NCBI GenBank assembly: GCA_000992345.1
Contig: LBUA01000002.1
Coordinates: 5,557 to 64,061, forward strand
DNA: 58,505 nt
Origin: Parcubacteria group bacterium GW2011_GWD2_38_12
Lineage (GTDB): Bacteria > Patescibacteriota > Minisyncoccia > GWC2-36-17
Reading direction: 5' to 3'
This document shows positions 6,559 through 43,452 of this stretch, in pieces; positions within the stretch are counted from its first letter, which is position 1; every line of letters begins with the position of its first letter. The position numbers were made by a program, and so were the translations under genes. Under the pieces are notes generated by a model. It did no database searches. It was not told where the DNA came from and saw nothing but the letters and a program-made list of their open reading frames with translations.

Positions 6559-7776
6559 GTGAGAAAGCTGGGAAAGCGAAGCTACACAAAAAGAAATGAC
6601 TTCTTGAAGTGGCTTGTTGGCAAGGCGGATGATAAGGGGATAATAGATAATCCAGTTAAGACGGCTCTTACTGATGGTTTTTTGAGGGTAACAGCGGAAC
6701 GGTTTTTGAGGATATTAATTAATGAAAAATATATTGAACCGATCGAAAATGGATTACATGGCAGAGAAAGGGATATTTTGGCGGTTAAAGTAAAGTCTAA
6801 TTGTTTATCGAAAGTTTCTGTAGTAATAAGAAGGTCGATAGTGAATAATGGTTTCGTTTCCGTTGGTTCTGATGGCGGAGTGATAGACAAGACCGCACAT
6901 AAAGAAAATATAATATCAGACATTCCTTTATCTACTGACACAATAAAAGAAAAGTATGGCGTTGTTGTAGTTTTTGATTATGACAACACTTCATTGTCTA
7001 CTATTTCCAAGAGGGGGCACGAAATAGATGTTCCCACGATGTATGACGCTGTTATCCGTTATGCGAATGATATCGGTCGTATCTTGAAAAAAGAAGCATA
7101 CATCACAACCTCTACGGAAGACAAAGATTTTGTGATTAAGAATTTTTTTAGTCTAGATAAGACTCCCGTGATTATCGTGCCGCCCCAAAAGGATGCGGCA
7201 GATGAGAAGATGATTGAAAGCATTGAATTTTCTTTGATGATACCTGAGTTAAAAGCAGTTATTATCGTAAGTGATGATAATAAGGCCTTTGGTATAAGTG
7301 ACAATAAATCGGCAGAAGATTCTGTATGTGAAAAGATTAAAAAAGCGGGTTGCGAGGCGCATATTGTGACAACGGGCTTTATATCGCCAGTGCTGGCCAG
7401 TGCGTCTACTAAAGTGGTGAATTTGTTTAATTTAATAGAAAAGATAGAGTCGCCGAAAGAAGGAGCGGTCGCCAAAAACAGATTCATTAATATAGTGAAG
7501 AAAATGAGTCTTGGAGTTTGTCCGATGACGAAAGAGGAAAAGTTTGTAATGACTTGTTTTGAAAGGGTTCGCGAGATGACTTGTGAGCCTGGGAAATGGT
7601 TTAATTTTTATCGATTATATGAAGGAGTTTGGCTGAAAATGAACGAGCAAGAGAAAAATAGTTTTAGTCTTGATGATTGTCGCTTTGCGATAGAAAGCTT
7701 GATAACAATAGGTATGATAAGGAAGGGAATGTTTTCTTTCGGATCTAAAAATTCTGTGGGTTATTTTGTGAGATAA
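6559..7776 (+). CDS. NYN (LabA/DUF88-like) domain protein with N-terminal wHTH-like and C-terminal extra domain
   Basis: GTG start 5 nt after ggaggtgg. The central region shows the NYN pattern: VVVFDYDN, PPQKDAADEKMIESI, AVIIVSDDNKAF and KKAGCEAHIVTTG. This is a family-level call from motif recall only. Confidence 0.5.
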   Translation: MRKLGKRSYTKRNDFLKWLVGKADDKGIIDNPVKTALTDGFLRVTAERFLRILINEKYIEPIENGLHGRERDILAVKVKSNCLSKVSVVIRRSIVNNGFVSVGSDGGVIDKTAHKENIISDIPLSTDTIKEKYGVVVVFDYDNTSLSTISKRGHEIDVPTMYDAVIRYANDIGRILKKEAYITTSTEDKDFVIKNFFSLDKTPVIIVPPQKDAADEKMIESIEFSLMIPELKAVIIVSDDNKAFGISDNKSAEDSVCEKIKKAGCEAHIVTTGFISPVLASASTKVVNLFNLIEKIESPKEGAVAKNRFINIVKKMSLGVCPMTKEEKFVMTCFERVREMTCEPGKWFNFYRLYEGVWLKMNEQEKNSFSLDDCRFAIESLITIGMIRKGMFSFGSKNSVGYFVR

Positions 7777-7812: not shown

Positions 7813-7958
7813 GTTTTGACCCCGTAGTAGAACTTTGATTGTGTTCGTCGCGGCGACCGCAAAAAAGCGTTTTTTAAAAGATTAATTTTAGATTATTGGC
7901 AGTTTTTGATTAAAAAACAAATATTTCATTGATATATTGTTAAAGTTTCACTACGGGG

Positions 7959-11580: not shown

Positions 11581-11653
11581 GGGGGTGTAGCTCAGTGGTT
11601 AGAGCACAGACCTTATAAGTCTGGGGTCGATGGTCCGATTCCATCCACCCCCA
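11581..11653 (+). tRNA. tRNA-Ile(UAU)
   Basis: Manual fold: acceptor gggggtg/caccccc, D arm gctc-agtggtta-gagc, anticodon stem cagac/gtctg with loop cuUAUaa, variable gggtc, T arm gatgg-tccgatt-ccatc. The T loop reads TCCGATT rather than TTCGATT. The discriminator A is followed by ccg. Confidence 0.82.
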
Positions 11654-11696: not shown

Positions 11697-12323
11697 ATGG
11701 ATAATCAGGAGGGTATTATTAAGCTGCTTAAAGAAGTCGGAGCGATTGTTAATGGTCATTTCGTTTACGCGTCGGGAAAGCACGGAGAAATTTACATCAA
11801 TAAAGACGCAATCTATCTGTATCCTCAGAAATTATATTGGCTTTGCCTTTTGATTGCCGGGCATTTTTCATCTGTTGATGTAGATGTTGTTGTTGGTCCT
11901 GTGCTTGGCGGAATCCCTCTTTCCCAATGGGTTGCTTATCACTTAAGCGAAATTAATGGCAGGGGTGGTAAAGAGGCGCTTGCTGTTTACGCTGAAAAAA
12001 CAGAAGATAAGAACGGTTTCATTTTCAATCGTGGCTATGATAAGGTTATCGCCGGCAAAAGAGTGTTGATTGTTGAAGATATAATAACAACGGGAAATTC
12101 GGCGCGAAAAGTCATTAAAGCGACGCATTCGGCTGGCGGTATTGTCATTGGTCTTGGGGCTTTAGTTAACAGGGGGGGCGCAAAGATTAATGATTTTTGC
12201 GGCATTTCAAATTTCTTTTCACTCGTTGATTTGAAATTGAATTCATGGGATGAGTCTGATTGTCCTTTATGTCTTAAAAGAGTGCCGATTGATAATAAAA
12301 TCGGACACGGAAGAGCATTATAA
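11697..12323 (+). CDS. phosphoribosyltransferase family protein (orotate PRTase-like)
   Basis: PRPP-binding loop VLIVEDIITTGNSARKVI. Strong SD aaggagg upstream. Substrate assignment is uncertain. Confidence 0.65.
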   Translation: MDNQEGIIKLLKEVGAIVNGHFVYASGKHGEIYINKDAIYLYPQKLYWLCLLIAGHFSSVDVDVVVGPVLGGIPLSQWVAYHLSEINGRGGKEALAVYAEKTEDKNGFIFNRGYDKVIAGKRVLIVEDIITTGNSARKVIKATHSAGGIVIGLGALVNRGGAKINDFCGISNFFSLVDLKLNSWDESDCPLCLKRVPIDNKIGHGRAL

Positions 12324-12397
12324 TTTCTTAAAATGTTTTACTAACCTCTAGTTCTGGAAAATAAATAACAAAAAACATAAGGAAAAATGACGACCAG

Positions 12398-12432
12398 AAA
12401 GCCTGTCAAAAATTGACAGGCTTTTGTTTTTT
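12398..12432 (+). terminator. rho-independent terminator
   Basis: aaagcctgtcaa-aa-ttgacaggcttt followed by tgtttttt. Confidence 0.85.
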
Positions 12433-12468
12433 AGTCTTGAACCAATAATGAATTTATAGTATTTTACT

Positions 12469-12635
12469 TTTATTGCTGACGTAGAGCGAGGGAAATACAA
12501 AAGTAATCTTTTGTATTTCCGAGCCAAGGAGGCAACAAAGGGTAAATACTCTGCCCCCTCCAGGGCGGACCAGCGCGAGCGCAGCAACTCAAAACGATCT
12601 GGGATTTTGCCCTGGGGTTATACCCTTTATTGATT
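12469..12635 (+). ncRNA. candidate structured RNA / mini-element, copy 1 (unassigned family)
   Basis: About 80% identical to 53561-53722. Shared blocks are GACGTAGAGCGAG, the identical 26-nt hairpin aaatacaaaagtaatcttttgtattt, CC.AGGAG and AGCGCGAG. Helices covary between the two copies. There is no plausible ORF on the + strand. Confidence 0.45.
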
Positions 12636-12722
12636 TTTGCGCGGTTGGCTCAGTGGTAGAGCGTCACATTGATCCCTCACCAAAATGGGCTCGTAGCTCA
12701 GTTGGTTAGAGCGCTACATTGT

Positions 12723-12827
12723 CCCTCACCTTAAAATACGCACCCTTAGCGCAGTGGTAGCGCGTCACATTGACATTGTGAAGGTCGCAGGTTCAATCCC
12801 TGCAGGGTGCACAGTAAAAGGTGAGGG
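12723..12827. repeat. inner 8-bp inverted repeat pair ccctcacc (12723-12730) / ggtgaggg (12820-12827)
   Basis: Identical in sequence to the outer pair. Flanking t/a, and tt/aa on the inner side, can extend the helix. Confidence 0.95.
12740..12811 (+). tRNA. tRNA-Val(GAC), complete, CCA not encoded (innermost)
   Basis: Acceptor gcaccct/agggtgc, D arm gcgc-agtggta-gcgc, anticodon stem tcaca/tgtga with loop uuGACau, variable aggtc, T arm gcagg-ttcaatc-cctgc, A73. Confidence 0.9.
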
Positions 12828-12910
12828 ATAGAGGTCTCCAGTTCGAGTCTGGACGGGCCCACCATTTGTTGGTGAGGGATGAAGGTCACAGGTTCAATCC
12901 CTGTACCGCG

Positions 12911-12960
12911 CACCAAAACATAACCCCCGCCATATATATGGCGGGGGTTATGTTTTGGTG
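12911..12960 (+). terminator. long hairpin closing the tRNA nest (terminator-like)
   Basis: caccaaaacataacccccgcc-atatatat-ggcgggggttatgttttggtg forms a 21-bp stem whose base includes the 3' CACCA of gene A. Confidence 0.55.
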
Positions 12961-12995
12961 TTAGAATATATTTATTAAATAATTTAATAAATATA

Positions 12996-13325
12996 ATGCC
13001 CTATATTCCTCAAAAAGAAAGAGAAAAATTAAATCCGTTGATAGATGAGCTTGCCAAGAAGATTGTTTGGCAAGCAAAAGAATGCGGCCACGAAGGAGCT
13101 TTTGGTGGCGTTTTGAATTATGTTTGCACGCGTCTGGCGCTTAAAGTCATCAAATTGCAATTTGGGAAAATCCGTTATTGGATAATTGCCGAAACAGTTG
13201 GCGTTTTTAAAAATATTGCCGATGAATTTTATCGTCGTATTGCCGCGCCATACGAAGACAAACAAATAGAAAAAAACGGCGACGTGGATTTATATAAGGA
13301 GTTTTTTAGAGAAATTAAGAAATAA
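12996..13325 (+). CDS. hypothetical protein (109 aa)
   Basis: ORF with a coherent globular sequence (MPYIPQKEREKLNPLIDELAKK...APYEDKQIEKNGDVDLY). I can name no family with confidence. Confidence 0.55.
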   Translation: MPYIPQKEREKLNPLIDELAKKIVWQAKECGHEGAFGGVLNYVCTRLALKVIKLQFGKIRYWIIAETVGVFKNIADEFYRRIAAPYEDKQIEKNGDVDLYKEFFREIKK

Positions 13326-13333
13326 AAAACATC

Positions 13334-13564
13334 ATGCCCTGCGTTTATGTTCTGAAGAATTTAAATAATAAAAAACTCTGCATTGGCTTGACTGATGATT
13401 TTGGCGGGGAATTTGAAAAAAATCAGAAATCTATTTTGGTTTCCATAAAATTTTTCAAGGACAAAAAAGAAGCCGGCAAATTTGAAAAACATTTGAAAAG
13501 TAAAAAGGGCTTGGCGGATTTTAAGCTTAAAATGAAAAACAAGGCCCTCGGTATAATGGATTAA
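13334..13564 (+). CDS. small GIY-YIG-like (UPF0213-like) protein, degenerate motifs
   Basis: VYVLKNLNNKKLCIGLTDD resembles the GIY...YIG N-terminal strand pair, and a later FEKHLKSKKG resembles the conserved Glu helix. The catalytic Arg region is not evident. Confidence 0.4.
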   Translation: MPCVYVLKNLNNKKLCIGLTDDFGGEFEKNQKSILVSIKFFKDKKEAGKFEKHLKSKKGLADFKLKMKNKALGIMD

Positions 13565-13648
13565 CCCCCCTTGCAAAAATATTTTTGAATCTATAGTATT
13601 TGATTTATGGAAGGCACCTTAAAATAAAAATATAAAATTGGAGGACAT

Positions 13649-15076
13649 ATGCTTATAAAATCTGGATCCAGAAAAAAGGTTGTTTTGATTGAGTCTCAAT
13701 CTCCTGGGCACCATGTTTTCTCAATGGTTTTATTGCCTCGCATCGGCATTATTTTGCTCGGGACGATATTAAGAAATATGGGCTATGATGTGACGATTAT
13801 TGTGGAAAATTTTCACGGGATAGATTGGAAGAAAATCCAAGAAGCGGACATTGTGTGCATATCCTTGATCACCTGCACCTCTATTGGCGGATATAAGATT
13901 GCTAAAAGATGCAGAGAAATGGGGAAAACGGTCATTATTGGCGGATCACATCCGACTTTTATGGCAGAAGAAGCGGCGCAATATGCAGATTACGTGTGTA
14001 TAGGCGAGGCAGAGTGGTCATTTCCAGAATTAGTGAATGCGATTTTAAGAAATGATTCTAATCCAAAAGATGTAAACGGAATTGCGTATAAGATGGATGA
14101 ATTATTAATAAAGACAAAACCATCCCGCCCTGTAACATCGCAAGATCTTAACAATTTTCCATTTCCCGACTTCTCTTTGATTTACGGAAATCCGAAGATG
14201 AAGATTACGCCAATAGTATCATCCAGGGGATGTCCGCATAGTTGCGACTTTTGCAGTGTTATAGTGATGTTTGGCAGAAAGATGCGCTATCGCAACGAAG
14301 ATAATGTTTTTGAGGAGATAAAAGATCAAAAGCCAAGGCATATCTTTTTTTATGATGATAATTTCACGATAAATAAAGAGAGAACATGGAATATTTTGAC
14401 GAGAATAATGAGTTTGCCCAAAAATAAGCGTCCGACTTGGAGCGCTCAGGTGGATGTCGGCATTGCCAGCGATAAAGACTTGATAAGGTTTATGGGAAAA
14501 TCCGGATGTGAGTACGTTTACGTGGGGTTTGAGTCAATCAACCAAAAGACCCTTGAGGCATATAATAAAAAGCAGGATATTGGAAAGATTAAGAGATGTA
14601 TAGAGGCGTTTCATAAAAACGGCATAAATATTCACGGAATGTTTGTTTTTGATCCTAAAAATGATAATTCCGATATCATAGATGAAACTTGTCGTTTTGT
14701 TGAAGATACAAAAATAGAAACAGTTCAATTTCTAAATCTAACACCATTACCAGGAACACCTCTATGGCAGAGAGAAGAGAAGAATCTTTTAACGCGGGAT
14801 TGGAGTCTTTTTGACGCTCATCATACTGTTTTGGAAGCTCAAAAAATGACAACCTTAAATATGCAGGAAGAAACAATAAATGCTATGAAGAGATTTTATT
14901 CTTTGTCCAGGGTCTGGTCTTTATATAGAGAGGGCAATAAATTGGCGGCAAGATTCAGGATGTTGGGATGGTATATCGTCAAAAAATGGGAAAGGGACGA
15001 AAAGGGCAATAATAAATATCTGGAGTTTTTGAAATTGAGGTCAATGTTTCTGGACGAATTTAGAATCAAAAAATAA
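13649..15076 (+). CDS. B12-binding-domain radical SAM protein
   Basis: N-terminal Rossmann-like B12-binding-type domain, then the CxxxCxxC cluster motif SSRGCPHSCDFCSV. SD ggagga upstream. Confidence 0.82.
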   Translation: MLIKSGSRKKVVLIESQSPGHHVFSMVLLPRIGIILLGTILRNMGYDVTIIVENFHGIDWKKIQEADIVCISLITCTSIGGYKIAKRCREMGKTVIIGGSHPTFMAEEAAQYADYVCIGEAEWSFPELVNAILRNDSNPKDVNGIAYKMDELLIKTKPSRPVTSQDLNNFPFPDFSLIYGNPKMKITPIVSSRGCPHSCDFCSVIVMFGRKMRYRNEDNVFEEIKDQKPRHIFFYDDNFTINKERTWNILTRIMSLPKNKRPTWSAQVDVGIASDKDLIRFMGKSGCEYVYVGFESINQKTLEAYNKKQDIGKIKRCIEAFHKNGINIHGMFVFDPKNDNSDIIDETCRFVEDTKIETVQFLNLTPLPGTPLWQREEKNLLTRDWSLFDAHHTVLEAQKMTTLNMQEETINAMKRFYSLSRVWSLYREGNKLAARFRMLGWYIVKKWERDEKGNNKYLEFLKLRSMFLDEFRIKK

Positions 15077-33395: not shown

Positions 33396-33400
33396 AACAA

Positions 33401-33505
33401 TTTTTAATTTCTATTAAATTTTCAATTATCCAATTTCTAAACAGTTTGAAAATTAATTCATTAGATATTTAATGAAAAATTAGAAATTAGAAATTGAAAA
33501 TTTTA
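33401..33505. repeat. ~105-bp intergenic direct repeat, copy 1 (hrcA-grpE spacer)
   Basis: Nearly identical to 34001-34104, with one substitution and one 1-nt indel by eye. Confidence 0.9.
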
Positions 33506-33510
33506 AAAGT

Positions 33511-33981
33511 ATGGAAGATCAACAAAATAATTTAGAAAAAGAGTTAATCGAATGCAAACAGAAAGCCGAGGAGTATCTTTTGGGTTGGCAAAGAGAGAGA
33601 GCGGATTTCGTAAATTACAAGAGAGATGAGACGAAAATACAAGAAGAGTCAAGATTTTATATGAAGTCAAAAATTATTTATGAATTTCTAGCGATTTTGG
33701 ATAATTTTGATATGGCATTGAATCATATGCCGGAAGATTTAAAAGATAATAATTGGGTTAAGGGGGTATCGCATATTCGGCAACAATTGGAGATGATTTT
33801 AAGGGGAGAGGGAGCAGAAGAAATAAAATGCATTGGCGATAAATTTGATCCCACATTGCATGAGTCGCTTGAAGATATAGAATCCGACGAAGAATCAGGA
33901 ATAATACTCGAAGAATTACAAAAAGGTTATAAATTGGACGGCCGAGTTATAAGACCGAGCAAGGTAAAGATTAGTAAGTAA
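33511..33981 (+). CDS. grpE: nucleotide exchange factor GrpE
   Basis: LGWQRERADFVNYKRD...ILDNFDMAL...FDPTLHESL...GYKLDGRVIRPSKVKI. Confidence 0.9.
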   Translation: MEDQQNNLEKELIECKQKAEEYLLGWQRERADFVNYKRDETKIQEESRFYMKSKIIYEFLAILDNFDMALNHMPEDLKDNNWVKGVSHIRQQLEMILRGEGAEEIKCIGDKFDPTLHESLEDIESDEESGIILEELQKGYKLDGRVIRPSKVKISK

Positions 33982-34000
33982 AACAATTTCTAATTATCAA

Positions 34001-34104
34001 TTTTTAATTTCTATTAAATTTTCAATTATCCAATTTCTAAACAGTTTAAAAATTAATTCATTAGATATTTAATGAAAATTAGAAATTAGAAATTGAAAAT
34101 TTTT
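34001..34104. repeat. ~105-bp intergenic direct repeat, copy 2 (grpE-dnaK spacer)
   Basis: See 33401-33505. The two copies are exactly 600 nt apart. Confidence 0.9.
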
Positions 34105-39836: not shown

Positions 39837-39939
39837 ATTAAAACCTTTGCCTATAAAATGGGCAGAGGTTTTTAAATTTTAACTCAAAGCGCAATTAGTA
39901 AATTGATTTTTTATAATATTGGCAGTATATTATTTTGAT

Positions 39940-41289
39940 ATGAAAAAGAAAAAATTCATTCGACAAGCTCAAGACAAACCTGAAATTGTAGCTCCGGCTG
40001 GGAGCTTGGAGAAAATGAAATATGCGTTTAAATATGGAGCGGATGCCGTGTATTGCGGCATACCGGATTTTTCGTTGCGCGCTCGCATCAATATGTTCGG
40101 GACAAAAGAAGTGATTGAGGGCATCAGGTATGCGCATAAAAAAGGCAAAAAGGTTTATATTACAGTAAATATTTTTGCGCACAATGAGCATATCAATAAA
40201 TTGCCACAGTATTTAAAAATATTTAAGAAGGAACTTCCCGATGCTTTTATCGCGTCTGACCCGGGCGTGATAGCGATTATCAAAAGAGAATTGCCGAAGG
40301 CAAATATTCATCTCTCTACTCAAGCCAATTGCACTAATTGGCAGGCGGCGGAGGCGTGGCATAAACAAGGCGTCAAAAGAGTGGTGCTGGCCCGCGAGGT
40401 ATCTCTAAAAGAGATGAAAGAGATTAAAAAACGCGTGCCGAAATTAGAGCTGGAAGTTTTTGTTCACGGTGCGATGTGCATGGCGTATTCGGGCAGATGT
40501 TTGCTCTCGGCTTGGATGAGCGGCAGGTCAGCCAATCTTGGCGATTGCGCGCAAAGTTGCCGTTGGCAGTATAAAAAAGTAAAGAGTGAAAAAGGAAAAG
40601 TGAAAAGTGGCGGAGAAAATCAAGAAGAAAACAAAATTCTAATACAAGAAGAAACGAGAGGTGAGCCGATGGAATTGATTGAAGATGAACACGGAAGCTA
40701 TATTATGAATTCAAAAGATTTGTGTTTGATTGATTATTTAAAAGATTTAAAAAATGCTGGCATTGATGCGTTTAAGATAGAGGGTCGCGCCAAGAGCGTG
40801 CATTATGTGGCGACTGTGGTGAAGGCGTATCGCCAAGTAATTGACTCTGGATATAAAAAATCAGTAATTGAAAAATCAAAAGAAGAATTATATAAAAACG
40901 TAAATCGCGAATACACCAATGCTTTTATTAAAGGTAATTTCGGCCAAGGTATGCAAAATTATGAAAATCGCAGTATAGGGTCTGATTGGGAGTTTGTGGG
41001 ACAAACAATAGAAGTTGAAAGTTTAAAGTTTAAAGTTAAAAGTGGTGGAGAAAATGAAATTTTTGTGAAACCGCACAATGCGTTGTATGTGGGAGAGGGG
41101 ATTGAGATTGTACAGCCAAAAGGAAAAAATATTAAAATGAAAGTTGAAAAAATAATAAATGCGACAAATGGGAAAGAGGTTGATTCAATGCACGGCGGCG
41201 TGAAGGATTTGTTTATTATTAATGTCGGTCAAAAGGTAGAGCCGATGAGTATAATTAGAAAATACAAGAATCTAGAATCTAGAAAATAG
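39940..41289 (+). CDS. peptidase U32 family protein
   Basis: KPEIVAPAGSLEKMKYAFKYGADAVYCG...EVFVHGAMCMAYSGRCLLS, the typical U32 pattern. Contains two low-complexity inserts (KVKSGGEN). Confidence 0.85.
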   Translation: MKKKKFIRQAQDKPEIVAPAGSLEKMKYAFKYGADAVYCGIPDFSLRARINMFGTKEVIEGIRYAHKKGKKVYITVNIFAHNEHINKLPQYLKIFKKELPDAFIASDPGVIAIIKRELPKANIHLSTQANCTNWQAAEAWHKQGVKRVVLAREVSLKEMKEIKKRVPKLELEVFVHGAMCMAYSGRCLLSAWMSGRSANLGDCAQSCRWQYKKVKSEKGKVKSGGENQEENKILIQEETRGEPMELIEDEHGSYIMNSKDLCLIDYLKDLKNAGIDAFKIEGRAKSVHYVATVVKAYRQVIDSGYKKSVIEKSKEELYKNVNREYTNAFIKGNFGQGMQNYENRSIGSDWEFVGQTIEVESLKFKVKSGGENEIFVKPHNALYVGEGIEIVQPKGKNIKMKVEKIINATNGKEVDSMHGGVKDLFIINVGQKVEPMSIIRKYKNLESRK

Positions 41290-41315
41290 AATTTAGAATA
41301 TAATAAAATTAATAT

Positions 41316-41347
41316 AAAACTTCGCTTTTGGCGAAGTTTTATATTTT
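41316..41347 (+). terminator. rho-independent terminator
   Basis: aaaacttcgc-ttttg-gcgaagtttt followed by atatttt. Confidence 0.8.
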
Positions 41348-41569
41348 AAGCACCCTTAAAATCATCAAAACAAAAGAGGATATATTTTGCTCACCTGTTT
41401 TATGATAGAATTTAGTCGTATGAAAAACTACGCAAAAGTTTGAAATAGAAAAGGGAGAGTGGCGTACAGAACGCCATCAGTTTTTTGTTCTGCTCAAAAA
41501 ATTAAAACGCAAAAATCGAAAGCAAAAATTACAAATTACAAATCAAAATTACAAAGATTTTGAAATAAA

Positions 41570-41980
41570 ATGAAATCATATCAAATACTTCCCCATGTCG
41601 CTGATATTAGATTGAAAGTTGAAGCGGATAATTTACCGGAGCTTTTTATGGCGGCGATTGAGGGGATGATGACGATTATTAAAGAATCAAAGGCAGAAGA
41701 GCAAGAAAGAGAAAAGAGAATTATTGAGGTAGAGTCAGCAGATGCAACATCTTTGTTGATTGATTTTATGAATGATATTTTATATCAATCTCACACCAAT
41801 AAAGAAATTTATACAGAAGTTAATTTTTTAGAATTTTCAGAAAAGGCGCTTAAAGCGGAAATTTATGGCATAAAAGTGGATGATTTTGATGAAGATATTA
41901 AGGCGGTGACATATCACGAAGTGGAAATAAAGAAAAACGAAAAAGGGAATTTTGAGACGGTGATTGTGTTTGATATATAA
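41570..41980 (+). CDS. archease
   Basis: YQILPHVADIRLKVEADNLPELF...VKAVTYHEVEIKK, matching the archease family pattern. It lies directly upstream of rtcB. Confidence 0.88.
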   Translation: MKSYQILPHVADIRLKVEADNLPELFMAAIEGMMTIIKESKAEEQEREKRIIEVESADATSLLIDFMNDILYQSHTNKEIYTEVNFLEFSEKALKAEIYGIKVDDFDEDIKAVTYHEVEIKKNEKGNFETVIVFDI

Positions 41981-42003
41981 AAAATGTAAAGCGTAAAGCA
42001 ATA

Positions 42004-43452
42004 ATGCAAATCAATAAAGACAATTTAATAAAAATAAATGATTATCTCTGGGAAATTCCGAAAAGTTTTCGTTCTGATATGCGCGTGCCGGCGCGAGTGT
42101 ATGCGACAGAGAAAATGCTGGAAGAAATTTTAACTGATAGATCGCTCAATCAGTTGATAAACGTTGCGACTCTTCCCGGAATACAAAAATATGCGTTGGC
42201 GATGCCGGATATTCATGAGGGATATGGATTTCCAATTGGCGGAGTGGCGGCGATGGATTTTGAAACTGGCGTAATATCGCCTGGCGGAATCGGGTATGAT
42301 ATCAATTGTGGCGTCAGACTTTTGAAATCAAATTTATCTTTTAAGGATGTTGAGCCGTATTTAGAAAGTTTAGCGCGGGAATTGTATAGCGAAATACCGT
42401 CGGGCGTTGGAAGGGGAGGAAAATTAAGATTAAATGACGATGATTTTGATGAGGTTTTAAAGCGGGGCGCAAAATGGATGATAAATAAGGAATTTGGCAA
42501 AGAAAATGACGCGTATTTTCTGGAATCTTTCGGGTGTTTAGAAAATGCTGATCCGGATAAAGTGTCTAGTCACGCAAAATCCAGAGGCAAAGATCAGCTT
42601 GGCACAATGGGCGCGGGTAATCATTTTGTGGAGGTGGATAGGGTGCATAAAATCTTTGATGAAAAAATAGCGGAAATTTTTGGACTCAAGAAAGATCAAA
42701 TTGTTGTTTTGATTCACACCGGTTCGCGCGGATTCGGCCATCAAGTGGCAACTGATTATATTCGTATTATGATGCAAGCGATGCCAAAATACGGAATTAT
42801 TTTGCCCGACAGGGAGTTGGCTTGCGTTCCATTTTCTTCACCGGAAGGCAAAGCATATTTTGACGCCATGGCGGCAGCGGCAAATTTCGCTTGGGCCAAT
42901 CGCCAGATGATAACTCATGAAGTGCGCAAATCTTGGAAAAATATCTTGGGCGATGCCGGAGGGGAGCTCTCTGTTGTATATGATGTAGCGCATAATATCG
43001 CAAAAATAGAAGAATACTTTATGGAAGGCAAATATAAGAAGGTGATTATGCATCGCAAGGGAGCGACGCGCGCATTTGGACCTGGGCAGGAAGAAATAAT
43101 TAAAGAGTATCGCAGTGCTGGTCAGCCGGTTTTAATTCCCGGCAGTATGGGGACTGCTTCGTTTGTTCTTGTTGGCACAAAAGATAGTATGAAAGAATCA
43201 TTTGGATCATCATGCCACGGCGCGGGGAGGCGTATGTCGCGCCATGAAGCGAAAAGAGAAGTGCGAGGCAATGAATTGAGAGAGGAAATGGAAAGAGAAG
43301 GAATCCATGTGAAGGTCGGGTCTACTCCCGGTCTTGCCGAAGAAGCGCCACTCGCCTATAAAGATGTGCGTGAAGTCGTTGATGTGGTAGAGGGCGCGGG
43401 AATTGCTAAAAAAGTTGCCGAGTTAAAACCAATAGCGGTTATTAAAGGATAA
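42004..43452 (+). CDS. rtcB: RNA 3'-phosphate/5'-OH ligase RtcB
   Basis: MPDIHEGYGFPIGGV, GYDINCGVR, GAGNHFVE, HTGSRGFGHQ and the nucleotidylated-His region SSCHGAGR. Confidence 0.95.
   Translation: MQINKDNLIKINDYLWEIPKSFRSDMRVPARVYATEKMLEEILTDRSLNQLINVATLPGIQKYALAMPDIHEGYGFPIGGVAAMDFETGVISPGGIGYDINCGVRLLKSNLSFKDVEPYLESLARELYSEIPSGVGRGGKLRLNDDDFDEVLKRGAKWMINKEFGKENDAYFLESFGCLENADPDKVSSHAKSRGKDQLGTMGAGNHFVEVDRVHKIFDEKIAEIFGLKKDQIVVLIHTGSRGFGHQVATDYIRIMMQAMPKYGIILPDRELACVPFSSPEGKAYFDAMAAAANFAWANRQMITHEVRKSWKNILGDAGGELSVVYDVAHNIAKIEEYFMEGKYKKVIMHRKGATRAFGPGQEEIIKEYRSAGQPVLIPGSMGTASFVLVGTKDSMKESFGSSCHGAGRRMSRHEAKREVRGNELREEMEREGIHVKVGSTPGLAEEAPLAYKDVREVVDVVEGAGIAKKVAELKPIAVIKG

Follow-up and report, generated by a model that had tools for sequence, protein, structure and literature searches.

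Three nested tRNA-Val(GAC)-type cloverleaves bounded by a common inverted repeat in a Parcubacteria genome

Introduction

Bacterial tRNA genes are regarded as structurally uniform, and group I and group II introns are the sole interruptions known in them (PMC4033280); in Archaea, the disruption of tRNA genes has been linked to the integration of mobile elements (PMC3293823), which is the published idea nearest to the locus described here. That locus lies in a stretch of 58,505 nucleotides (nt) of Parcubacteria group bacterium GW2011_GWD2_38_12 (contig LBUA01000002.1, positions 5,557 to 64,061), referred to as a whole as the window, and it occupies window positions 12639–12915 (277 nt). It consists of three concentric tRNA cloverleaves—an uninterrupted core inside a divided shell B, which is itself inside a divided shell A—and both shells are closed by one type of inverted repeat, ccctcacc/ggtgaggg. 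No description of nested bacterial tRNA genes was found in full-text literature searches, and this three-layer nest appears to lie outside the known categories; the mechanism that we infer for it draws on three to four lineages. Loci outside the window are referred to by L numbers.

Several described systems resemble the nest in part. The split and intron-containing tRNAs of Archaea, among them the split tRNAs of Nanoarchaeum and Caldivirga, likewise have tRNA halves joined by a G+C-rich complementary helix in the anticodon arm, and the archaeal-type ligase set, RtcB and archease, is also encoded in the genome studied here. The nest differs in its bacterial host, in having no bulge-helix-bulge motif, in an anticodon arm that excision does not restore, in an insert that holds a complete paralogous tRNA gene, and in shells that decay in some lineages. 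The group I and group II introns of bacterial tRNAs share with it an insertion in the anticodon loop, but the nest has no ribozyme core recognizable with Rfam, its site is not 37/38, nucleotides of the target are lost, and the insert is composed of tRNA and linkers.

Miniature inverted-repeat transposable elements (MITEs) and small palindromic repeats such as the Correia elements are similar in length (~100 nt), in their terminal inverted repeats, in having no open reading frame (ORF), in being present or absent among relatives and, as seen in locus L124, in occurring as a stand-alone copy with the same core. The terminal repeats of the nest are perfect arms of 9–10 base pairs (bp), identical at both positions in the window and in L124 and L122. 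There is, however, no target-site duplication (5–6 nt are replaced relative to the uninterrupted orthologue), insertion is into one specific gene, and a complete tRNA gene is carried as cargo, which would substitute for the target it destroyed. Integrative elements that target tRNA genes, often in the anticodon loop, also keep a working tRNA by means of their own sequence, but they are kilobases long, encode an integrase and are flanked by a direct repeat of the tRNA 3' segment, whereas the nest has a 105-nt insert with no ORF, inverted rather than direct repeats, and a complete new tRNA enclosed by the old one. A further parallel is offered by twintrons and by nested group II introns of the self-homing kind, in which nesting follows from an element that carries its own target site. 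Those elements are based on a ribozyme and a reverse transcriptase and are removed by splicing, whereas in the nest no splicing is known and function would be kept by replacement.

Structure of the nest

All segments of the nest lie on the forward strand. Shell A has a 5' part at 12639–12673 (acceptor strand GCGCGGT, D arm, anticodon-stem nt 27–31, TCACA, and TTGAT), which in the predicted fold pairs with a 3' part at 12879–12915 (ATGA, AGGTC, T arm, acceptor strand ACCGCGC, A73 and CCA). Between these parts are the outer repeat arms, ccctcacc at 12674–12681 and its partner ggtgaggg at 12871–12878; flanking AT extends the left arm to the 10-nt sequence ATCCCTCACC, and the same 10-mer is present in L124 and L122. 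An A/T-rich linker, aaaat (12682–12686), leads to the 5' part of shell B at 12687–12722 (acceptor strand GGGCTCG, D arm and CTACATTGT), followed by the inner left arm ccctcacc at 12723–12730, which a flanking T extends to 9 nt, and a second A/T-rich linker, ttaaaatac (12731–12739). The core occupies 12740–12811. Beyond it are the linker cagtaaaa (12812–12819), the inner right arm ggtgaggg (12820–12827, paired with 12723–12730), the 3' part of shell B at 12828–12864 (ATAG, variable loop AGGTC, T arm, acceptor strand CGGGCCC, A73 and CCA), and the linker tttgtt (12865–12870). The linkers vary in length and sequence among loci, and the two inserts, of 105 nt and 205 nt, are made of tRNA and linkers.

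The acceptor, D and T stems are fully paired in all three layers, with one G-U pair in B, and the acceptor strands of each shell are complementary only to their own partner. When the 277 nt were folded without constraints, the minimum free energy structure was the nested cloverleaf (−122.3 kcal/mol, z = −6.1; 0 of 200 shuffled sequences were as good). The 8-mer occurs six times in the window, where 0.61 occurrences are expected, and six were reached in 0 of 100 shuffles; no further copies of the repeat pair were found in the 58-kb window. No ORF of at least 60 amino acids (aa) was found inside the nest unit. An earlier description made without database searches (the sequence-only reading) had placed every segment of the nest where it is found here, and it had described the D and T arms as textbook, the acceptor stems as paired and the unit as free of ORFs; these observations stand unchanged, as does its view that the locus fits no known class.

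The core is an intact tRNA gene with A73 and no encoded CCA. It is called as tRNA-Val(GAC) by ARAGORN and matches Rfam family RF00005 with 72.8 bits (E = 4.9e-14) against a gathering score of 29, as a functional tRNA does; it is the sole layer capable of decoding.

Upstream, the tRNA transcription unit is limited by the terminator-like hairpin of a phosphoribosyltransferase gene (12397–12425). Downstream, a 25-bp perfect palindrome (CACCAAAACATAACCCCCGCCATAT and its complement) followed by a T run spans 12911–12960, overlaps the CACCA end of shell A, and is likely the terminator of the unit; the sequence-only reading had recognized a hairpin here and had given it 21 bp. Several independent contigs start or end at this palindrome. 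No sigma-70-like promoter was found in 12300–13050. We regard the locus as one ORF-free transcription unit, presumably yielding a single transcript, in which one working tRNA-Val(GAC) is wrapped in a disabled shell B and then in a disabled shell A.

Interrupted genes and their uninterrupted orthologues

Alignment of the halves identifies A, B and the core as tRNA-Val(GAC) paralogues: identity is 84% between A and the core and 90% between B and the intact tRNA-Val(GAC) that forms the core of L124. Both shells share the form YYA-CATTG-(A)-[T CCCTCACC ... GGTGAGGG A]-TRR. Relative to the arm of an intact tRNA-Val(GAC), YYACA TTGACAT TGTRR, nt 35/36–40, (A)CATTG, have been replaced by the insert, and each shell is left with a 3-bp anticodon stem, a 5–6-nt CAUUG(A) bulge and a 9–10-bp helix.

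The effect of the insert was followed with ARAGORN, the use of which the sequence-only reading had recommended. With introns of up to 300 nt allowed, the program calls the core tRNA-Val(GAC) and neither shell. Deletion of the insert in silico gives a 2-nt 'anticodon' for A and, at default settings, nothing for B; if GGG is retained, A is accepted as tRNA-Ile(GAU) and B produces only a malformed call. Restoration of the lost nucleotides, (A)CATTG(T), leads to a tRNA-Val(GAC) call for both A and B, which none of the other edits does. Neither shell has the makings of a functional tRNA, as no removal of the insert yields a 5-bp stem with a 7-nt loop; the sequence-only reading was right that the shells are 3–4 nt short of a canonical anticodon arm. 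Its assignment of the outer gene to tRNA-Ile(GAU) has to be replaced, since both the alignment and the orthologues described next make A a derivative of tRNA-Val(GAC).

Orthologous sites were located by walking outward from the DUF6899 gene that lies downstream of the nest. Two relatives, L143 (DUF6899 81% identical, downstream gene order the same) and L145 (DUF6899 77% identical), have an uninterrupted tRNA-Val(GAC) at this site: the L143 contig opens with ...TCACATTGACATTGTGAAGGTCACAGGTTCAATCCCTGTACCGCGCA directly upstream of DUF6899, and in L145 the same sequence is preceded by TAGAGCG. These genes are identical to the restored form of A over 47/47 and 54/54 nt, respectively, and the 31 nt kept by A, which extend from the anticodon stem to A73, match their 3' part exactly. 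A is therefore the orthologue of an ordinary tRNA-Val(GAC) gene and was interrupted after these lineages split. As far as can be judged from these comparisons, shell A is a disabled tRNA-Val(GAC) gene, its restored form being that of the uninterrupted gene in L143 and L145, and shell B is a putative disabled tRNA-Val(GAC) gene of a second type ('type II'). Synteny is lost in L136–L142, L144, L146 and L147, and the closest homologue of the phosphoribosyltransferase is just 55% identical.

L145 shows a further feature (L145 1–270). Its intact A-type tRNA is followed by a 49-nt spacer, by GGCGAGGG, which is a variant of the right repeat arm with one mismatch, by GGC-TGTGA-AGGTC-TCAGG, by a 51-nt insertion in the T loop, and by TTCAATCCCTGTACCGAGCA; a stem mismatch is also present. 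These elements are most simply described as what decay has left of the 3' half of a further shell, one whose junction differs and whose 5' side lies outside the contig, since the contig begins within the tRNA.

An encoded CCA is found in three of the five shells versus one of 11 ordinary tRNAs in the same loci, and two uninterrupted A-type genes are without it. The CCA positions are 12912–12914 and 12862–12864 in the window and 657–659 and 968–970 in L122. An origin by retro-copying, as an encoded CCA might suggest, was rejected: the cores have no CCA, and that of A is part of the terminator palindrome.

Nests in other lineages

The nest repeat has the form ATCCCTCACC/GGTGAGGGAT, with variants such as CCCTCGCC. 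Metagenomes were scanned with the pattern CATTG-N1-2-CCCTCACC-N75-105-GGTGAGGGAT; because the exact repeat was required, diverged relatives and covariation in the helix fall outside the sample. Four loci (L121, L122, L123 and L124) were recovered. L121 and L124, identical in sequence, originate from two Hainich wells; in both, a shell (acceptor GCGCGCG, CCACATTGAT-ccctcacc ... ggtgaggg-ATGG, T arm) surrounds a core consisting of an intact tRNA-Val(GAC) with acceptor GGGCTTG; in L124 a normal tRNA-Ile(GAU) lies 60 nt upstream of the nest. In L122, on a 304-kb contig, the roles are reversed, and a shell with acceptor GGGTTCG surrounds a core with acceptor GCGCGTG. In L123 the repeat pair encloses 81 A/T-rich nt with no tRNA, on a G+C-rich contig, and may be a chance occurrence.

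The GCGCG.. type is thus a shell in the window and L124 and the core in L122, and the GGGYTYG type is a shell in L122 and in B of the window and the core in L124. This exchange of roles implies at least three separate events: A with B in the window corresponds to the L124 combination (GCGCG.. shell, GGGCT.. core), the core inside B represents a further event, and L122 has the opposite combination of shell and core. L145 adds a fourth junction. The genomes of the window, L124 and L122 belong to distant groundwater lineages, and the tRNA-Ile(UAU) genes of the window and L124 are identical at about two-thirds of positions. Linkers cannot be aligned among the loci, yet the window, L124 and L122 have exactly the same 10-nt arms and CATTG bulge. 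The nest would in this respect be a new kind of tRNA gene organization for Bacteria, one that recurs with a conserved 10-bp inverted repeat in distant Parcubacteria.

The repeat also occurs outside tRNA genes. At 7706–7802 of L124 there is a stand-alone 18-bp hairpin, CCCCTCACCCTTAAAAGA ... TCTTTTAAGGGTGAGGGG (core CCCCTCACCC...GGGTGAGGGG), which encloses 58 A/T-rich nt and is intergenic, 16 nt upstream of tRNA-Ile(UAU); its presence suggests that the nest repeat belongs to a dispersed family of elements.

The shells range from pristine to ruined, as is expected for genes freed from selection at different times. In that of L122 a hairpin of ~40 nt with ends CCCCATACC...GGTACGGGG occupies the D loop, and the 3-bp stem is mismatched. 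Downstream in L122 is a second, 5'-truncated copy of the core plus the shell 3' half, both copies lying within 436–975. G+C-rich hairpins have been inserted into this second copy precisely at its D, anticodon (37/38) and T loops; small hairpin elements may land in the tRNA loops of these genomes more widely.

Other searches added no nests. A scan of genome contigs with the pattern ACATTGN{1,2}CCCTCACC gave more than 120 chance matches, none of them with a partner repeat and a tRNA, and viral contigs held neither nests nor the joined right–left palindrome GGTGAGGGATCCCTCACC, the eight matches there being chance occurrences with no tRNA. A spurious 56-aa ORF that overlies the nest was used as a query against protein databases and gave no candidates.

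Origin of the nest

We put at about an even chance the reading that a tRNA-Val cassette, bounded by inverted repeats and without a promoter of its own, inserts time and again into the resident tRNA-Val(GAC) gene and takes its place, so that the shells are disabled relics. The cassette would consist of the 9–10-bp inverted repeat (A)TCCCTCACC ... GGTGAGGGA(T), short A/T-rich linkers and a complete tRNA-Val(GAC) gene, and it would replace the apex of the anticodon arm, nt 35/36–40 (A)CATTG, of a pre-existing tRNA-Val(GAC) gene. It would be expressed from the promoter of the resident gene, and RNase P, 3' trimming and CCA addition would release the core tRNA. With the interrupted gene unable to decode, and its shell presumably left without function, the cell would come to depend on the cassette copy; as the cassette carries its own target sequence, a second invasion could then follow and give the Russian-doll layout. 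The fact that target and cargo are both tRNA-Val(GAC) explains this self-nesting. Spread might be by site-specific insertion or by a homing type of gene conversion. Joined head to tail, the arms form a perfect 18-bp palindrome, GGTGAGGGA|TCCCTCACC, which, speculatively, would fit an enzyme that binds DNA as a dimer or an intermediate in hairpin form.

A mobile element that targets anticodon loops and has inserted twice was among the possibilities raised by the sequence-only reading, and of those it fits best, given the uninterrupted orthologues, the recurrence of the junction with exchanged gene types, and the decayed shells. It has been sharpened in two respects: both target and cargo are tRNA-Val(GAC), and nt 35/36–40 are replaced with no duplication of the target site.

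A more ambitious form of the replacement cassette reading is that the nest represents a new class of selfish element, a 'gene-replacement' tRNA cassette with no promoter that targets its own paralogue by homing to the anticodon loop, kills that gene, becomes indispensable and nests within itself. We offer this tentatively, as a possibility that falls short of probable, and a bolder variant would have the shell halves persist as functional two-piece tRNA-like RNAs. If the cassette reading is true, this is DNA that spreads by substituting for an essential gene instead of by splicing out, and such a protein-free unit of ~105 nt would be smaller than any other addictive mobile unit known.

Several observations weigh against a replacement cassette. 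Searches near the nests turned up no transposase, recombinase or homing endonuclease, so that mobility of the cassette is something we infer. There is no target-site duplication, and the same 5–6 nt are lost in four shells; this shared loss could mean that one ancestral junction was spread by gene conversion rather than by a dedicated element. The combination of strongly differing cargo and linkers with an invariant 10-mer and CAUUG bulge could equally reflect selection at the RNA level on helix and bulge. An allele with an empty site was sought in the population to which the window belongs, and the exact nest was present in 9/9 contigs. The excess of CCA in shells, together with the pristine state of A and B and their invariance in the 13 records described below, hints at retained function. 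The independent nest lineages sampled number three, plus L145.

Some specific agents were considered and set aside. ISDra2 inserts 3' of TTGAT, the sequence at the end of the 5' part of A, but an element of the IS200/IS605 type was rejected on account of the lack of subterminal hairpins and of B, which has TTGT. For a serine recombinase (AT crossover, palindromic half-sites), the reconstructed site TCACATTG-AT-GAAGGTC mismatches the uninterrupted orthologue TCACATTGACATTGTGAAGGTC. A K-turn in the bulge was rejected by eye, there being no tandem G-A pairs in the right register.

Alternative explanations

The strongest alternative, which we nevertheless consider unlikely, is a one-off rearrangement that placed a palindrome-flanked tRNA-Val within another, the junction having then been copied by homologous recombination among tRNA-Val(GAC) paralogues and the shells being pseudogenes. 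Such copying would account for a junction that is identical in all four shells down to the loss of nt 35/36–40, and for the failure to find a transposase near the nests; tRNA-Val paralogues share long identical stretches in the D and T arms that could serve as homology arms, and partial duplicated copies are present in L122 and L145. It should, however, have copied linkers and core as well, and both differ completely among the loci. The stand-alone hairpin of L124 and the variant repeat and junction of L145 also look more like members of an element family.

It is improbable, in our estimate, that the shells form a functional RNA with no decoding role: once the core has been cut out, the halves would remain joined by acceptor stem and repeat helix and would act as tRNA-like molecules that lack an anticodon. 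Suggested roles would be a decoy for anticodon nucleases, a substrate for a non-ribosomal user of aminoacyl-tRNA, or a processing scaffold. The window shells are pristine and have all universal tRNA nucleotides, CCA is encoded in three of the five shells as against one of 13 ordinary tRNAs, the CAUUG bulge retains the 5' side of the Val anticodon loop, and the nest is invariant across 13 records. Yet those records are near-clonal, so that their invariance says little, and the terminator palindrome includes the CCA of A; since A is identical to a still-functional orthologue, its pristine state may simply reflect youth. The decayed shells of L122 and L145 and a deletion in L127, described below, speak against necessity. 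The sequence-only reading had raised a related possibility, a multi-domain tRNA-like RNA, and nothing was found in its support.

A new type of bacterial tRNA intron or split tRNA, in which an endonuclease would recognize the 3-bp stem, CAUUG bulge and 9–10-bp helix and RtcB with archease would religate the halves, is an improbable explanation too, and we rate it slightly below the last. In its favor are a helix and bulge that are invariant over distant lineages, the perfect acceptor, D and T arms that A and B retain, the acceptance of A as tRNA-Ile(GAU) by ARAGORN when GGG is kept, and a genome that encodes both RtcB (42004–43452, 587 bits) and archease (41570–41980, 98 bits), and so possesses the ligase. 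These genes are 29 kb from the nest, however, and not encoded at the locus as the sequence-only reading had it, and RtcB does not accept as substrates the 5'-phosphate and 3'-hydroxyl ends that RNase P and RNase Z produce.

The search for an intron was likewise negative. Rfam gave no group I or group II intron or small ribozyme, and no family except the tRNA of the core, at the gathering score over the whole window and at E ≤ 5 in 12300–13000. A script that looked for strict bulge-helix-bulge motifs (two 3-nt bulges around a 4-bp helix) found 0 in the window nest and in L124, where shuffled sequences had means of 2.2 and 0.9, respectively, and the match in L122 results from shifting the register of an uninterrupted 15-bp helix. 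No splicing endonuclease of the EndA family was found among 20 ORFs scanned against Pfam (58 kb of genome). No way of cutting and joining gives a 5-bp stem and a 7-nt loop for both A and B, and for B nothing consistent results. An Ile product would not be needed in L124, since a tRNA-Ile(GAU) is already present 60 nt upstream of the nest, and shells are decayed or deleted in L122, L145 and L127. Religation of split or intron-containing genes, which the sequence-only reading had put forward, is in sum unsupported by motif, by intron family, by ARAGORN (which calls the core alone) or by an arm that could be restored. The locus is all the same a concrete substrate on which the action of RtcB/archease and of RNase P/Z can be studied in ultra-small bacteria.

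Records and strain variants

The identical 277 nt are present in 13 records (NCBI, ENA, JGI and Logan) from different samples, assemblers and databases, all of one groundwater Parcubacteria population (GW2011_GWC1_38_17-like), and the nest is for that reason not an assembly artefact. The chance that several tRNA-Val genes have been mis-joined is negligible: contigs of relatives do often break within or beside tRNA-Val genes and at the terminator palindrome, but the agreement of the 13 records, the same architecture in the unrelated assemblies L121, L124 and L122, and acceptor strands that in each shell match their own partner only all speak against it. Standard tRNA finders report the core and miss the shells, and assemblies tend to break at such loci.

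One variant affects shell B. In L127 (LBTL01000048.1), 35 nt equivalent to window 12831–12865 are missing, which is nearly the whole 3' part of the shell, its first three bases being kept. The flanks are 99–100% identical to the window, and the deletion is not a simple collapse between two copies of ggtgaggg.

In two assemblies of the same population, L129 (1–355) and L131 (1–30), unrelated sequence upstream of the DUF6899 gene takes the place of the nest, and homology to the window begins exactly at GCACCA (window 12910). This alternative sequence has no Rfam match and no further copy in the window; it may have arisen from a chimeric join at the palindrome, or it may be a genuine structural variant.

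Neighboring features

Between the upstream terminator and shell A, the ~200 nt at 12430–12638 contain a 13-bp hairpin, gggaaatacaaaag...cttttgtatttcc, and G+C-rich segments; no ORF, promoter-like site or Rfam match was found there. On the other side of the nest, a trio of genes encoding DUF6899, a 76-aa GIY-YIG-like fragment and a B12-binding radical SAM enzyme (12996–15076) is conserved in L135, L136 and L143, and it is kept in relatives with or without a tRNA nest upstream. The GIY-YIG fragment and DUF6899 were considered as a responsible nuclease and rejected, as the gene pair is conserved in relatives that have no nest.

The RtcB and archease genes adjoin a gene for a U32 peptidase and a two-component system. 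The order at 39919–43452 is U32 peptidase-family gene, archease and RtcB; members of the U32 family take part in RNA hydroxylation, and the segment may be a cluster for RNA repair or modification.

Genes for tRNA-Ile(UAU) are located at 11581–11653 in the window, at 7818–7891 in L124 and at ~33–110 on the minus strand of L146; the UAU anticodon is an uncommon bacterial way of reading AUA. Elsewhere in the window, two similar A/T-rich inverted-repeat blocks (...AATTTCTAATT...), at 33398–33509 and 33984–34101, flank a 156-aa ORF at 33511–33981.

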